A stretch of DNA of 64,000 nt, from NCBI GenBank assembly GCA_964514305.1, contig CAZEQD010000004.1, forward strand, positions 20 through 64,019, in the 5' to 3' direction. How positions within the stretch are numbered: position 1 is the stretch's first letter; each line of letters opens with the position of its first letter. Below the pieces are notes generated by a model. That model was given only the letters and a program-made list of their open reading frames with translations. It did no database searches and was not told the origin of the DNA. Positions 5,342 to 63,581 of this stretch are shown here, one piece after another. Origin of the DNA: an uncultured Eubacteriales bacterium (GTDB lineage Bacteria; Acidobacteriota; Aminicenantia; Aminicenantales; Aminicenantaceae). A program made the position numbers and the translations under genes.

Positions 5342-7324
5342 ATGACTATAAATCGGAGAGAATTTATTAAATTAGGACTAACAGCGGGCTCTTTGGTAGC
5401 TCTCGGTCAAAGTTCAAGCCTTTTAACTAAAAACCTAGGCAAAAAAGCTACTCAAAAAAAAGTAATTATTCTTGGTCTTGATGGAATGGACCCTCATCTT
5501 CTCACTGTTTGGATGAAACAAGGAAAGCTTCCCCATTTCCAGCAGCTCTGGAGTCAGGGAGATTTTCGGCCATTAAGAACAAGCATCCCCCCTCATAGTC
5601 CTGTAGCCTGGGCTAACTTTATTACAGGCACCAATCCAGGAGGACATGCTATTTTTGATTTCATTCATAGAGACCCTAATAATTATATCCCTATATTTTC
5701 TACTTCAAAAACAGAAGAAGCTAAAAAAACAATTTCCATAGGTGATTTTGTCCTTCCTCTTTCTGGAGGAAAGGTTAAGCTGCTCCGCCAGGGTAAAGCT
5801 TTCTGGCAAATCTTAGAAGATTATGATATTCCTGCCACCGTTTTTAAGATTCCATCCAACTATCCACCGGCGCCTACCGAACAAAGAACTCTCTCTGGCA
5901 TAGGAACTCCTGATATCCTTGGAACTTATGGAATTTTCAATTACTACACCACTGAATCCAAAGAATTAAATCAAGACATTGGCGGAGGCCGTATCCATGA
6001 AGTTTATGTTATAGGCAACAGAGTTGAAGCCAAGCTGCCAGGACCTGTTAATACCTTTAAAAAAGAAAGGCCAGAATCATATATTGATTTTAAAGTCTTT
6101 ATTGATCCTCAATATCCTGTTGCCAAGATTTCTATTCAAGATAACGAATTCATCCTCAATGAAGGAGAATGGAGCGGCTGGAAAAGAGTTCATTTCACCA
6201 TGATTCCGACTCAAAGCGTGAGCGGCATTTGTATGTTTTACTTGAAAGAAGTTCGACCTGAATTCAAGCTCTACATTACTCCCATTAACATTGATCCTGG
6301 ACATCCAGCTCTTCCCATCTCAACTCCCAAAAGTTATGCTGAAGAGCTAGAAAAGGAATTTGGTCCCTTCTTCACTAAAGGCCTGCCAGCAGACACTTCT
6401 GCTCTCGACAATAATGTCTTAGATGACGGCGAATTTCTCCAGTTAGATGATTTTATCCTGCAAGAAAGACATAAAATATTTGATTACGAGCTGGAGAGGT
6501 TTGATTCGGGTCTTCTCTTTTATTACGTCTCCAGTACCGATCAGCGGCAGCACATGTTCTGGCGGCTGATTGATAAAAATCATCCATCGTATGATTCTCT
6601 CTTGGCCTCTAAATATGGCCAAACTATCGAGAATATCTATATCGATATGGATAACCTACTAGCTAAGGCCATGAAAAAGGTGGACAAGGATACTATATTG
6701 ATGGTTATGTCTGATCATGGATTTGCCCCTTTTCATCGAGGATTTCATTTGAATACCTGGCTTAAAGAATACGGCTACCTGAAACTCATTAACGAACGGA
6801 AACAGGGACAAGAGTCTTTCTTCCTCAACACTGACTGGTCAAGGACGAGGGCTTATGCTATTGGCCTTAATGGTCTTTATATTAATCAAAGAGGGAGAGA
6901 GGCAGAAGGAATAGTCTCCCCTGGAGCAGAAAAAGAAGTTTTGGTCAGAGAAATTGCTCATAAACTGGAAAAATTTAAGGATCCAAAGACAGGAGAAAAA
7001 GTAATTCTTCACGCTTATGTAGCCAAGGATGTTTACAGCGGACCTTATGTGGATGAAGCTCCGGATATAATCCCTGGCTATAATAGCGGTTACAGGGTCT
7101 CCTGGGCCTCCCCTCTTGGCCGAATACCCAAATCTATAATGGAAGATAATACCGAAAAATGGAGTGGGGATCACTGTATGGCTCCTGATGTCATTCCTGG
7201 CATCCTGCTTATGAATCGAAAAATAAAAGTTTCATTTCCAGCTCTTTATGATGTAACAGCTACTATTTTGAAAATTTTTAATATTAAAAAACCAAAAGAA
7301 ATGATCGGCCAAACAATTATATAG
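5342..7324 (+). CDS. AlkP-superfamily type I phosphodiesterase/nucleotide pyrophosphatase-like protein, Tat-exported
   Basis: Twin-arginine signal 'MTINRREFIKLGLTAGSLVALG'. 'ILGLDGMDP', 'SPVAWANFITGTNPGGHAIFDF', 'MSDHGF', 'SGDHC'. Confidence 0.7.
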   Translation: MTINRREFIKLGLTAGSLVALGQSSSLLTKNLGKKATQKKVIILGLDGMDPHLLTVWMKQGKLPHFQQLWSQGDFRPLRTSIPPHSPVAWANFITGTNPGGHAIFDFIHRDPNNYIPIFSTSKTEEAKKTISIGDFVLPLSGGKVKLLRQGKAFWQILEDYDIPATVFKIPSNYPPAPTEQRTLSGIGTPDILGTYGIFNYYTTESKELNQDIGGGRIHEVYVIGNRVEAKLPGPVNTFKKERPESYIDFKVFIDPQYPVAKISIQDNEFILNEGEWSGWKRVHFTMIPTQSVSGICMFYLKEVRPEFKLYITPINIDPGHPALPISTPKSYAEELEKEFGPFFTKGLPADTSALDNNVLDDGEFLQLDDFILQERHKIFDYELERFDSGLLFYYVSSTDQRQHMFWRLIDKNHPSYDSLLASKYGQTIENIYIDMDNLLAKAMKKVDKDTILMVMSDHGFAPFHRGFHLNTWLKEYGYLKLINERKQGQESFFLNTDWSRTRAYAIGLNGLYINQRGREAEGIVSPGAEKEVLVREIAHKLEKFKDPKTGEKVILHAYVAKDVYSGPYVDEAPDIIPGYNSGYRVSWASPLGRIPKSIMEDNTEKWSGDHCMAPDVIPGILLMNRKIKVSFPALYDVTATILKIFNIKKPKEMIGQTII

Positions 7325-7339
7325 ATTTGAGGTGAAGAA

Positions 7340-7531
7340 ATGGGAAAAGCAAAGATTAAACTTGACAAAAATTTAGTGGACAAAGTAAAAAAGATGGCGG
7401 CCATGGCCGGCTATTCTTCTCCAGAAGAGTTCATAACTCACTGTTTGGAAAAAGAAATAGCAAAGCTTGAAGAATCCGATTCTGAAGAGGAAATTAAGAA
7501 GAAATTAAAAGGCCTGGGCTATATATCATGA
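7340..7531 (+). CDS. Small ribbon-helix-helix-like (CopG/Arc/MetJ-type) DNA-binding protein, tentative
   Basis: 63 aa. 'KIKLDKNLVDKVKKMAAMAGYSSPEEFITHCLEKEI' fits a beta-strand / helix / G-x-S turn / helix RHH pattern. RBS 'gaggtgaag' upstream. Confidence 0.4.
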   Translation: MGKAKIKLDKNLVDKVKKMAAMAGYSSPEEFITHCLEKEIAKLEESDSEEEIKKKLKGLGYIS

Positions 7532-7537
7532 ATCGGA

Positions 7538-7823
7538 AGTCGTAAATCGTGAATAGTGAACATTTAGCTGTAGGGTCCGCTGTCCTCAGCGGACCGCCAG
7601 GAAAAGTAAAAGGTAAGGAGCGGGATGTAAGACGTGAATCGTAAGACGTAAATTGTGGAGGGTAAAGATTTATTGGTTTAAAGTTGAAAGTTTAAGGCGG
7701 GAAAGAAGTGAAGAATGAGGAGTAAGGAGTGAAGAGAATGTTATTTAACATCTCACGATTTACCACTCACTACTCACTACACACGATTTACGACTTACGA
7801 TTTACTATTCACGATTTACGATT
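7538..7823. repeat. Composite palindromic element B1: 23-bp terminal inverted repeats, inverted arrays of ~10-11-bp CGTAAATCGTG/ACGATTTAC-type motifs, internal 9-bp GC hairpin
   Basis: TIR-L 7538-7560 'agtcgtaaatcgtgaatagtgaa' pairs with the reverse complement of TIR-R 7801-7823 (21/23 match). ACGATTTAC recurs four times in the right arm and its complement in the left arm. Hairpin ggtccgctg/cagcggacc at 7574-7595. Confidence 0.6.
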
Positions 7824-7849
7824 CAACTCTAATAAGGTACAAAAGAAAA

Positions 7850-8677
7850 ATGTGGTTTTTTAATTATTCATGGGGCAAAATTTTTGAATTTATCTTTTTC
7901 CCCTTTCGCCATCTAAACCCTTGGTGGGGCATGATCTTCATCTCTTTACTTACTGGCCTTTTTATGCTGGCTGTCTTTAAATATACTTCTAATCAAAAAG
8001 GAATTAGTCAAGTTAAAAATAAAATAAAAGCTCATTTACTTGAAATACGTCTATTTAAGGATAATTTTGCTCTCTCTCTTAAAGCTCAAGGCAACATCCT
8101 TCGCTATAACCTTAAATATATCAGCTATTCTTTTAAACCCATGCTGGTTATGATCATTCCTTTGATTTTAATTTTAATCCAACTTAATCTCTGGTTTGGC
8201 TATCACTCCCTTGAACCAGGACAAAAAGCAATAGTCAAAGTGAAACTAAAAAAAGAATATAATCCTCTTGATTTAAAGTTAAAAATAGATCCATCACCAG
8301 GTTTTCGGGTTGACAGTCCTCCTTTAAGGATAGAAGAAGAAAAAGAAGTAAATTGGCGGATCCAAGCTAAAAAGAAAGGCATCTATTCTTTGGTCATAAA
8401 AGTTGACAATCAAAGCTATCAAAAAAATGTAGCCATTAGCCAAAATTCATTAACTAAAATTTCCCCAGCCAAAGTTAATAAAAATTTTTGGGCAGAGTTG
8501 CTTTACCCTGGGGAACAACCTCTTTCTTCGGATTCTCCCCTGGAATCGATAGAAATAACCTATTCTTCCAAAAAAATGAATCTTTTTGGCCTCCATCTCC
8601 ACTGGCTTATTGTCTATTTTGTTTTGTCAATAATTTTTGGCTTCGGACTTAAAGGTTTTCTTAAGGTACAAATCTAA
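7850..8677 (+). CDS. Hypothetical membrane protein
   Basis: Multiple hydrophobic helices; no recognisable motif. Confidence 0.45.
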   Translation: MWFFNYSWGKIFEFIFFPFRHLNPWWGMIFISLLTGLFMLAVFKYTSNQKGISQVKNKIKAHLLEIRLFKDNFALSLKAQGNILRYNLKYISYSFKPMLVMIIPLILILIQLNLWFGYHSLEPGQKAIVKVKLKKEYNPLDLKLKIDPSPGFRVDSPPLRIEEEKEVNWRIQAKKKGIYSLVIKVDNQSYQKNVAISQNSLTKISPAKVNKNFWAELLYPGEQPLSSDSPLESIEITYSSKKMNLFGLHLHWLIVYFVLSIIFGFGLKGFLKVQI

Positions 8678-47540: not shown

Positions 47541-47649
47541 TCATTACTATATATCATTAAAATTTCAATAAATTTTCCATATTATATTTTACTGGCACAA
47601 ACGCTCTGCTATGGATAGCAGACCCTAAAGATAGTAGCTTATTAATTCC

Positions 47650-47716
47650 TAATTTTCACTTTTCTCTTCTTACTTCTCACTGTTTACTATTCACTGTTTA
47701 CTTTTTACTCTATTAT
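47650..47716 (+). repeat. Family-B element, solo arm copy B2
   Basis: 'ctgtttactattcactgtttactttttactctattatgc' aligns with B1 right end 'cgatttactattcacgatttacgattcaactctaataagg'. Adjacent hairpin ctgctat-gg-atagcag at 47606-47621. Confidence 0.5.
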
Positions 47717-47717
47717 G

Positions 47718-48716
47718 CTACCATCTATAAACTATGGCCGCCCAGGTAAAGCCAGCCCCAAAGGCATCCATCAAGATTATATCACCCTTTTTTAGCTTTC
47801 CGGCCTGACTAAGTTCATGAAGGCCGATAGGAATTGTGGCCACTGAGACATTGCCGTATTTATGGATGTTAATGTAAACTTTTTCTGGAGGTAGCTTTAA
47901 ACGTTTACCAGTGGCTTCGATTATTCTTATATTTGCTTGATGAGTTACAAGATAATCAACATCTTCTTTCTTCAAGTCAGCACGAGCTAGGGCTTCTAAA
48001 GCAGCTTCCCCCATACGCTTAACAGCATGTTTAAAAACCTCATTTCCCTTCATATGAAGAAAATGGAGTCCCTGGGAAATCGTTTGATTAGAAGCTGGTA
48101 TTCGGGTTCCTCCACCTGGGATGGAAAGTAAATCACCAAGATTGCCATCGGCCTTCCAGTAGGAAGAGAGCATGCCCGAATCATCGTCACTTTCTTCAAG
48201 GATTACGGCTCCGGCACCATCTCCGAAAAGAACACAAGTACTGCGATCTTTCCAGTTGGTAACCTTGGTTAAAAGTTCTCCTCCTACTAATAGAATACGT
48301 TTGAGAGCTCCACTCAAAATTAAACCTTCAGCTAAAATCATTCCATACAAAAATCCGGTACACCCGGCCGAAATATCAAAAGCAGGGATATGGTCAGCTC
48401 CGAGTCCTTTCTGAATCCAGCAGGCAGTAGAAGGAAATATGGTATCTGGAGTGGAAGTAGCGGCTATAATAAGATCAATATCTTCAATTTTAAGCCGGGC
48501 TGAACGAAGAGCGTTCAAACCAGCTTCAATACCGAGATCAGATGTAGCCTGTTCAGGCGAAGCTACTCTTCTTTCTTTGATTCCGGTTCTGGTTATTATC
48601 CACTCATCTGAAGTATCTACCATTTTTTCCAAATCGGAGTTGGTTAAAATTTTATCAGGCACATAAAAGCCGGTACCTACGATTTTGATCTTTCGTTTTT
48701 TCTCTTTGTTGGCCAT
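47718..48716 (-). CDS. fabH: 3-oxoacyl-ACP synthase III
   Basis: Catalytic Cys 'AGCTGFLYG', 'HQANIRII', 'GAGFTW'. Start at 'MANKEKK' with a GGAG RBS. Confidence 0.85.
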   Translation of the reverse strand: MANKEKKRKIKIVGTGFYVPDKILTNSDLEKMVDTSDEWIITRTGIKERRVASPEQATSDLGIEAGLNALRSARLKIEDIDLIIAATSTPDTIFPSTACWIQKGLGADHIPAFDISAGCTGFLYGMILAEGLILSGALKRILLVGGELLTKVTNWKDRSTCVLFGDGAGAVILEESDDDSGMLSSYWKADGNLGDLLSIPGGGTRIPASNQTISQGLHFLHMKGNEVFKHAVKRMGEAALEALARADLKKEDVDYLVTHQANIRIIEATGKRLKLPPEKVYINIHKYGNVSVATIPIGLHELSQAGKLKKGDIILMDAFGAGFTWAAIVYRW

Positions 48717-63156: not shown

Positions 63157-63506
63157 GAAAAATCATTTAAACTTTTTTTATTATTTAGCTTAATTAACTT
63201 TTTATAAATTTCTTTTTTTATATCTTATCCTCTGCTTCTAGATTGAATAGAGCTACATGGAGAGAGAGACTTTGATTGAATTTATATCAAATATTTAATT
63301 TATATCAAATATTTTATTAAATTATATATTTAAGTAAAAAATAGATCACATCATAATCACTCCAATTAAGAAAAGAAAATATAGTTAACAAACTTTCTTC
63401 CTTTCGAGCTAGCAATAATTCTCAAGAATTGAAGATAATTTGCTATCAAAAATAACTTCGCAAAAAAGAAATGGCTAAAATATCCATTTAAACATATATA
63501 AGAAGT

Positions 63507-63581
63507 GCGCCTGACAGGACTCGAACCTGCGACACAGGGATTAGGAATCCCTTGCTCTATCCATACTGAGCTACAGGCGCA
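63507..63581 (-). tRNA. tRNA-Arg (anticodon CCU)
   Basis: A 75-nt cloverleaf: 7-bp acceptor GCGCCUG/CAGGCGC, D-arm GCUC-AGUAUGGAUA-GAGC, anticodon arm AGGGA-UUCCUAA-UCCCU, T-arm GCAGG-UUCGAGU-CCUGU, discriminator A. CCA is not encoded. Confidence 0.85.

Follow-up and report, generated by a model that had tools for sequence, protein, structure and literature searches.

The window considered here, 64,000 nucleotides of contig CAZEQD010000004.1 (assembly GCA_964514305.1) from an uncultured bacterium of the Aminicenantes, carries a 301-nt insert between the gene for a small ribbon-helix-helix (RHH) protein and the gene for a membrane protein. This insert is probably a lineage-specific heptanucleotide simple-sequence element, built as a convergent pair of arrays of the form 5'-(GTRAnnn)n ... 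(nnnTYAC)n-3', and we would place it with the dispersed intergenic heptamer repeats of Xanthomonas and Nostoc, of cyanobacteria (the short tandemly repeated repetitive sequences, STRR) and of Beggiatoaceae (the TAACTGA repeats). That degree of probability is meant for the explanation as a whole, in which identity as a heptamer repeat is taken together with the origin and the role as an RNA stem proposed below.

Architecture of the insert

The period of the repeat carries much of the argument. Self-identity at a lag of seven is 0.527, whereas dinucleotide shuffles give 0.269 +/- 0.025 (z=10.3); the pattern lies beyond the shuffled background, and the autocorrelation has harmonics at lags 14, 21 and 28. 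A previous sequence-only reading of this DNA had described motifs of ~10-11 bp, but lags 10 and 11 are at background (0.29 and 0.25), and each of the motifs then listed amounts to one and a half heptads; the true unit is a 7-mer whose core is GTRA(R), read as TYAC on the opposite strand. Tandem Repeats Finder returns periods 7, 14 and 28 in the insert, with the right block called both at period 7 (x5.9) and at period 14 (x5.3). In the 64-kb window and in a comparison set of 80 species-level loci from relatives (~745 kb, all centred on the RHH operon), chains of at least four GTRA units are confined to period 7, with none at 5, 6, 8, 9 or 10.

In total the insert holds some 40 of these heptads (Table 1). 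They are degenerate: most units retain the GTRA(R) core, and the variation falls at positions 5-7. GTRAnnn units lie on the + strand over the left two thirds of the insert and on the - strand over the right third, so that the blocks converge on the central palindrome, and the sign of the GC skew flips at the centre (+0.76 over 7596-7745, -0.61 in the right block). On the + strand, the purine-rich entry arm contains 21 stop triplets distributed over all three frames; the pyrimidine-rich exit (right) arm contains one stop triplet and no ATG or GTG.

The 23-bp inverted repeats placed earlier at 7538-7560 and 7801-7823 are reproduced, with 21 of 23 positions complementary. If one 7-nt indel is allowed, this inverted repeat, the strongest in the 64-kb window, widens to 7529-7572 and 7761-7826, and the left outer block at 7528-7562 is complementary to 7801-7826. 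What had been taken for terminal inverted repeats (TIRs) are the outer units of the two heptad arrays. Equally reproducible is the GC hairpin at 7574-7595, a perfect 9-bp stem with a 4-nt loop that is unique in the window; no T-run follows this hairpin on either strand, and it is not called as an intrinsic terminator. As a single strand, the insert is predicted to fold very stably in either orientation, at -101.8 kcal/mol for the + strand (z=-6.6) and with z=-8.0 for the - strand.

The absence of an open reading frame (ORF), also asserted earlier, is essentially correct: the one candidate that an ORF caller yields, a 44-aa GTG ORF at 7729-7863, is judged spurious and exists because the TYAC-oriented arm has no stop codons. 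A scan of 7000-8200 found no sigma-70-like promoter, in the array or around it, a terminator scan found none within the array, and Rfam returned no relevant family for the insert, either at gathering threshold or at E<=10. By alignment, the insert follows the final sense codon of the RHH gene and precedes the ancestral stop/spacer TAATAAGG..., and the TGA that now terminates the RHH gene comes from unit 1 of the left outer block. The right arm stops 21 nt short of the membrane-protein ATG.

Table 1. Parts of the heptad insert, its flanking genes and the second array of the window (window coordinates)
Feature	Position	Strand	Sequence or remark
Complete heptad insert	7529-7829	none	301 nt = 43 x 7; from alignment with four relatives without the insert
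Termini of insert			TGAATCGTAAATCGTGAATAGT
Left outer block, 5 units	7528-7562	+	aTGAATC GGAAGTC GTAAATC GTGAATA GTGAACA
GTAG tetranucleotide and GC hairpin	7570-7595	+	GTAG keeps the left-block register; stem GGTCCGCTG-tcct-CAGCGGACC
Left inner block, 14 units, single register	7606-7703	+	GTAAAAG GTAAGGA gcgggat GTAAGAC GTGAATC GTAAGAC GTAAATT GTGGAGG GTAAAGA tttattg GTTTAAA GTTGAAA GTTTAAG gcgggaa
Four more units, after a 4-nt phase shift	7708-7735	+	GTGAAGA ATGAGGA GTAAGGA GTGAAGA; Shine-Dalgarno-like
Central palindrome, 14 nt	7738-7751		ATGTTAtTTAACAT; meeting point of both orientations and apex of the predicted stem
Right block, 11 units	7750-7828	-	GTRAnnn on - strand (nTYACnn on +): TGAATC GTAAATC GTGAATA GTAAATC GTAAGTC GTAAATC GTGTGTA GTGAGTA GTGAGTG GTAAATC GTGAGAT
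Leftover ancestral stop/spacer and ribosome-binding region of membrane-protein gene	7830-7849	+	TAATAAGGTACAAAAGAAAA; from alignment with relatives
Gap between RHH gene and membrane-protein gene	7532-7849		318 nt; abnormal length relative to relatives
RHH gene, 63 aa	7340-7531	+	neighbour of the insert, not part of it
Membrane-protein gene, 275 aa	7850-8677	+	directly after the RHH gene in relatives, stop and start often (nearly) overlapping
Second array, single arm, 8-9 units	47653-47712	-	GTAAAAA GTAAACA GTGAATA GTAAACA GTGAGAA GTAAGAA gagaaaa GTGAAAA

The same spacer in relatives, and the RHH protein

The sequence-only reading had held this gap to be no ordinary spacer and had proposed a comparison with orthologous loci, which proves it right. 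In 79 of the 80 loci the RHH gene is succeeded by the membrane-protein gene; the two are 0-345 nt apart (median 29), and most of these 79 relatives have only 0-40 nt and no array. In contigs whose RHH protein is 95% identical, the spacer measures 12-15 nt; relative to these, 301 nt have been cleanly inserted in the window ahead of the ancestral TAA-spacer-ATG.

Within its own population the insert is invariant in size. Eight contigs span the whole spacer at equal length, with 0-5 single-nucleotide polymorphisms, and two further contigs of the same species end inside the spacer and show no indel in the portion present. A phase-variable contingency locus was considered and rejected, the length being constant in these eight contigs and in the four that span the second array of the window, and the units being heterogeneous. 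Constant length in the spanning contigs therefore marks the arrays as fixed, stable structures rather than hypervariable contingency repeats.

The protein encoded upstream is an RHH protein, on evidence that is weak but consistent. It scores 21.5 bits against Pfam RHH_1 (cut-off 20.5), with weaker matches to the N-terminal domain of NikR, and its AlphaFold2 model (predicted local distance difference test 79) shows an extended N-terminus followed by helices at residues 10-23, 28-46 and 49-59. The best Foldseek matches are all RHH proteins (NikR, MazE6, FitA, CopG, VapB and ParD), every one with E>1, and a sequence search of the Protein Data Bank gave only an insignificant match to a uL13 tail. 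Database homologues number 2514; identity across the 80 species loci and 120 listed proteins is 74-100%, and every listed homologue with a lineage name belongs to the Aminicenantes, some of them mislabelled as "uncultured Eubacteriales" or Desulfaltia. The protein and its neighbours recur identically on metagenomic contigs.

An RHH gene beside an uninterrupted run of at least four 7-bp units, some direct and some inverted, with GTGA/TCAC in the unit, invites comparison with omega of pSM19035. Omega is an RHH protein that places one dimer on each 7-bp unit WATCACW, with 7-10 units contiguous and both direct and inverted; the reverse complement of its unit, WGTGATW, is a GTGA-type heptad (PMC9499535). 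By this precedent, dimers of the 63-aa protein would bind each heptad through its GTRA(R)/TYAC core and polymerise, either regulating the downstream gene or organising DNA as an operator or centromere. A fixed core of 4-5 bp accompanied by free letters is what contact by an RHH beta-ribbon is expected to produce, and the array abuts the RHH gene. Heptads also occur in the RHH-membrane spacer of a few other lineages: L019 and L020 (TAGTGAG CTGTGAG ...), L025 (AGTAAGG ...) and L043 (TTAAGGA/GTAAGGA). In L020, further arrays stand after the stop codon of the preceding gene and directly 5' of the operon's -35 box, the latter a TCAC-oriented array that ends 8 nt upstream of that box; in L019, a convergent pair with differing spacer letters lies 5' of the operon. 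Equivalent sites of L019 and L020 carry different numbers of units, and the unit letters differ too.

Against this stands, once more, the comparison with relatives. The protein is 74-98% identical in 79 species, most of which have 0-40 nt of spacer without any array. Since the array is missing from most of these species despite a conserved RHH protein, it is not that protein's conserved operator and, as judged by comparing these loci, is dispensable for its function. The earlier suggestion of an iteron operator of the ParR/ParG/CopG type, which looked to an array kept in position with the RHH gene across relatives and to a longer period, fails on both counts. An omega-like arrangement fits the period, but several of its other features do not match. 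The sites of omega, well conserved and plasmid-borne (inc18), overlap the copS, delta and omega promoters and work with ParA, whereas the insert is chromosomal, contains no promoter-like site, lies 3' rather than 5' of the RHH gene and has no ParA gene nearby. Its units read ATTYACG or ACTCACT, so that only the (T)CAC core is held in common and half of them have TTAC, and its degenerate units take the opposite polarity to the omega sites, which run TCAC and then GTGA. Among the operon promoters of 24 species, no heptad pair is conserved. Taken with the distribution of GTRA heptads described below, these points leave us regarding a binding array of the omega kind as improbable.

Several observations concern the RHH protein and its operon in their own right. 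The positions most invariant in the protein are G24-Y25, H34-C35 and the C-terminal tail S48-EEE[IV]KKKLKGLGYIS rather than the DNA-reading strand; the tail corresponds to the third helix of the AlphaFold2 model and looks, in that model, like a protein-docking motif. Two phosphodiesterase-family proteins and one membrane protein are the conserved partners of the RHH protein in the operon. Around the insert, the neighbouring genes encode phosphodiesterase-family, membrane, aminotransferase and nitroreductase proteins, and none near it encodes a ParA partner, a transposase or a REP-associated tyrosine transposase (RAYT; REP, repetitive extragenic palindrome). In more than 20 Aminicenantes species, the operon promoters consist of TTGACA-like and TATAAT boxes located ~160 nt 5' of the first phosphodiesterase gene (L006-L079; for example, L020:380-425 and L019:415-460). 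Because the -10 box lies only ~7-12 nt from the ATG, the promoter sequences suggest leaderless or near-leaderless mRNAs.

The spacer also harbours repeats of other kinds. In four loci (L005, L014, L021 and L024, at ~6190-6400 in each) it is filled by palindromic GTCATTGCGAGG-type elements, REP- or MITE-like (MITE, miniature inverted-repeat transposable element) and of the form GTGTCATTGCGAGGAGCGAAG...GCTCGCAATGACA. In L018 (CP070825.1, 6190-6535) the 345-nt spacer consists of a ~45-nt direct repeat (CCTGAATTATTCATAAAAAATGCC...TTACAG) around a ~230-nt GC-richer insert, which may be a different small mobile element; L028 has a single copy of the ~45-nt repeat that is seen twice in L018. Unrelated repeats have landed or expanded recurrently in the RHH-membrane spacer.

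GTRA heptads and known heptamer repeats

Among the long simple-sequence repeats of bacteria, those with a 7-nt unit are the commonest (PMC4679880). MacGregor (2015) treats the cyanobacterial STRR together with TAACTGA repeats in Beggiatoaceae, Cyanobacteria and Bacteroidetes, all intergenic and patchy in distribution, the arrays being missing from close relatives, whose spacers are shorter (PMC4679880); MTYCTGA x5 sites are known from Geobacter (PMC2700814). In Xanthomonas, Rehm et al. (2015) describe (GGGAATC/GGGANTN)n arrays, 183-186 per genome and 89-93% intergenic, with 70-75 convergent pairs per genome (PMC4692102). These arrays follow stop codons by no more than 50 bp when on the sense strand, or lie 5' of ORFs when on the antisense strand, at a mean of 28 nt to the 5' ORF versus 160 nt to the downstream ORF, and their length differs between close species; the authors propose G-quadruplexes, assign no function and give GGGGAYT as the unit in Nostoc (PMC4692102). 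Origin by 7-nt slippage is a hypothesis attributed to Mrazek et al. (2007) in PMC4679880 and restated in PMC4692102.

The insert resembles the Xanthomonas and Nostoc arrays in most of these respects. Its units are exactly 7 nt, head to tail, with 4-5 fixed positions and free spacer letters, and GTGAATC/GTAAATC is one or two substitutions from GGGAATC; it is intergenic, the G-rich strand being sense past a stop codon and the C-rich one lying toward the next ORF; it is convergently paired and labile between relatives, and its neighbour genes fall into no prominent functional class. It differs in a GTRA rather than GGG(G)A core, which makes G-quadruplexes impossible, in being more degenerate, and in gathering ~40 units in one element as against a typical four. 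With the STRR, TAACTGA and Geobacter repeats it shares tandem intergenic heptamers, a patchy distribution and units containing TAA or TGA, and the unit of a Planktothrix array, (GTAAATC)~29, is exactly its main unit. The STRR and TAACTGA arrays, however, are mostly near-perfect runs of a single heptamer, and those of 'Maribeggiatoa' lie just 5' of start codons in forward orientation, whereas the insert is degenerate and directly follows a stop codon.

The window holds two heptad loci of the GTRA class, the second being the single-armed array near 47.65 kb. The sequence-only reading had taken 47650-47716 for a partial copy of one arm of the insert; it is instead an array in its own right, of the same heptad class, with no terminus in common with the first, and the 18-mer common to both arms is absent there even when three mismatches are allowed. 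The array shares the sense orientation of a FabH-like gene (47718-48716, - strand) and begins 9 nt past its stop codon; it lies between the ends of convergent PorB-like and FabH-like genes and is identical in four same-species contigs. An imperfect hairpin, CTCTGCTAT-gga-TAGCAGAC, is found 25 nt past it at 47604-47628, with no following T-run. Elsewhere in the window, an AT-rich 18-nt tandem repeat of 3.3 copies (63275-63333) occurs ~170 nt from a - strand tRNA gene (63506-63580).

More widely, a scan of metagenome contigs for (GTRANNN)x5 recovered at least 120 loci, on contigs of 25-70% GC. With arrays counted as a pair when within 400 nt of one another, the matches listed include 32 convergent pairs (GTRA first on each strand) versus a single divergent one. 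Among the same matches, GTRA-sense arrays stand at a median of 8.5 nt after the end of the upstream ORF, a figure inflated by an ORF-calling artefact, and ~130 nt before the next start; arms are often unequal (18 versus 5 units), and about three quarters of the loci are single-armed. Loops vary between copies within one genome or contig (L166), and in some pairs (L169, L151) the 4-nt cores are complementary and the spacer letters are not. The heptad type tends to be genome-specific across the loci of one contig (L166, L126, L147, L178). A reading of convergent pairs as bidirectional terminators was rejected, the genes that flank the listed matches showing no convergent preference. Two of the 109 small ORFs that flank metagenomic arrays (loci L101-L220) match 23S_rRNA_IVP, a four-helix-bundle family, the sole family matched more than once.

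This distribution bears on the omega-like operator as well. The GTRA class occurs in organisms far beyond the range of the RHH family, no RHH family appears among the Pfam families listed for the 109 small flanking ORFs, and the second array of the window sits between two convergent gene ends.

In a BLAST search with the insert, phage records gave no match, and plasmid records yielded only other heptamer arrays, among them one of ~29 GTAAATC copies from Planktothrix and one of 10 GTAGTGA copies from Escherichia albertii. The former, ~29 perfect GATTTAC units in the Planktothrix agardhii plasmid NZ_LR882964.1 (22867-24138; L225:470-665 and 737-771), lies between a DUF1998 gene and drmA of the DISARM defence system and has been annotated over part of its length as a hypothetical protein; beside it, a small array in the opposite direction gives a rare divergent arrangement. 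The latter comprises ten perfect TCACTAC units inside a "hypothetical protein" next to cydX on the E. albertii IncF plasmid CP043241.1 (L226:601-669), an ORF that is probably an artefact of the stop-free heptamer array. The TCACTAC heptad is also present in the window at 7766-7779.

Inverted ends, absence from relatives and a GC hairpin can also be read as marks of a mobile element. REPs are hairpins of 20-40 nt with a conserved sequence, occur in hundreds of copies and are linked to a RAYT gene; in REPs, in bacterial interspersed mosaic elements (BIMEs) and in REP doublets forming hairpins (REPINs), GTAG precedes a GC-rich hairpin, and effects on mRNA stability and on differential expression within operons have been proposed. 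The insert might accordingly be a non-autonomous MITE or REPIN, its heptad ends bound by a remote transposase or its GTAG-hairpin module moved by a RAYT. Like a MITE, it is ~300 bp (301 nt) long, lacks a real ORF, ends in near-identical inverted termini of 21-23 nt (21/23 complementary) and is present in one lineage while cleanly missing at the orthologous site of others. Like REP, BIME and REPIN sequences, it is palindromic, intergenic and intercistronic, with GTAG before a GC hairpin as REPs generally have. The 32:1 inward polarity of the matches listed resembles that of transposon ends, the genome-specific heptad type (L166, L126, L147, L178) would suit mobility within a genome, and other palindromic elements occupy the equivalent spacer in L005, L014, L021 and L024.

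The part of the MITE proposal that stands is the inserted inverted-repeat structure with empty orthologous sites; what falls is the expectation of a target-site duplication and, within the 64-kb window, of further copies. The flanks, ...ATATCA/TGAATCG and CGATTCA/ACTCTAATAAGG, have no direct repeat in common at either candidate boundary, the termini do not recur in the 64 kb even with up to three mismatches, the second array having a different terminus, and the hairpin is unique there. The insert consists mostly of heptad arrays around a single hairpin, its termini are 7-mers of variable number, and no transposase or RAYT is encoded nearby. Across the class, arms are unequal or single, and loops and spacer letters differ, an irregularity that fits in-situ slippage better than copy-and-paste. 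We consider mobility of either kind unlikely.

A putative intercistronic stem and its meaning

With the insert read as a heptamer-repeat element, its origin may be sought in 7-nt replication slippage, followed by an inverted duplication of the outer units. Because no promoter or terminator consensus lies inside it, the array is probably read through, and would thus be co-transcribed, as part of the operon. Within the transcript, the G-rich entry arm, with its stops in all frames, would pair with the C-rich exit arm, which offers no start triplets, in an imperfect stem of ~130 bp and about -100 kcal/mol. Such a stem would uncouple translation of the RHH and membrane-protein genes and could, by analogy with REPs, serve as an element for RNA stability or processing. 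An intercistronic RNA stem is the most likely effect of the insert, though the folding model on which it is based supports it weakly.

Some observations weigh against this combined explanation. The RNA-level role is one that we infer, and the - strand folds as strongly as the + strand. The comparable L025 spacer folds no better than shuffles on either strand; RNA-specific G-U pairing was considered for that spacer and discarded on the same result. The outer 21-23 nt of the two arms are near-identical, as in a true TIR. Finally, at least three to four further lineages have heptads with differing units, either in the RHH-membrane spacer or on the flanks of the RHH gene; such arrays are rare elsewhere in the ~745 kb, a sample centred on the operon, and this recurrence exceeds what random simple-sequence repeats would lead one to expect.

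A stronger claim at the RNA level would make the insert a structured non-coding or cis-regulatory RNA selected for its fold, for example, a protein sponge with GGA or GURA motifs. The very stable folds (z=-6.6 and -8.0) and several GGA/AGGAG motifs in 7613-7735 speak for this. The GGA motifs, however, are limited to a minority of the units, both strands fold alike, as those of any DNA palindrome would, and Rfam has no match even at E<=10. There is no promoter or terminator consensus, and the relatives lack homologous sequence, hence offer no covariation test. This we think very unlikely.

The polarity of the arrays also calls for explanation. Stop codons in all frames were considered as its general cause and rejected, since GGGAATC arrays have equal polarity without containing stop triplets. 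GTRA arrays, for their part, cannot form G-quadruplexes yet obey the placement and polarity rules of GGGAATC arrays, which suggests a mechanism independent of G-quadruplexes. It is conceivable, if quite doubtful, that one common system that reads or adds heptads lies behind both. One candidate would be a heptad-reading protein, in the Aminicenantes possibly the 63-aa protein, next to whose gene arrays stand in four or five lineages; another would be the addition of repeats to the two 3' ends at a DNA break, a process expected to give convergent polarity, unequal arms and variable junctions. If such a system exists, the insert would be a footprint or a working site of something as yet undescribed.

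For this locus, the tempting annotation as a MITE or as iterons of the ParR/ParG type can be removed. To the heptamer repeats of bacteria, the insert adds a long, degenerate and non-G-rich example from an uncultured phylum, and the existence of a GTRA class that follows GGGAATC-like rules argues against the G-quadruplex as the common cause. Stop-proximal convergent polarity is a concrete rule that any future mechanism will have to explain. In one lineage of the Aminicenantes, meanwhile, an RHH gene and a membrane-protein gene that are normally almost fused have been split by this long, self-complementary insert, and their co-expression is probably altered.

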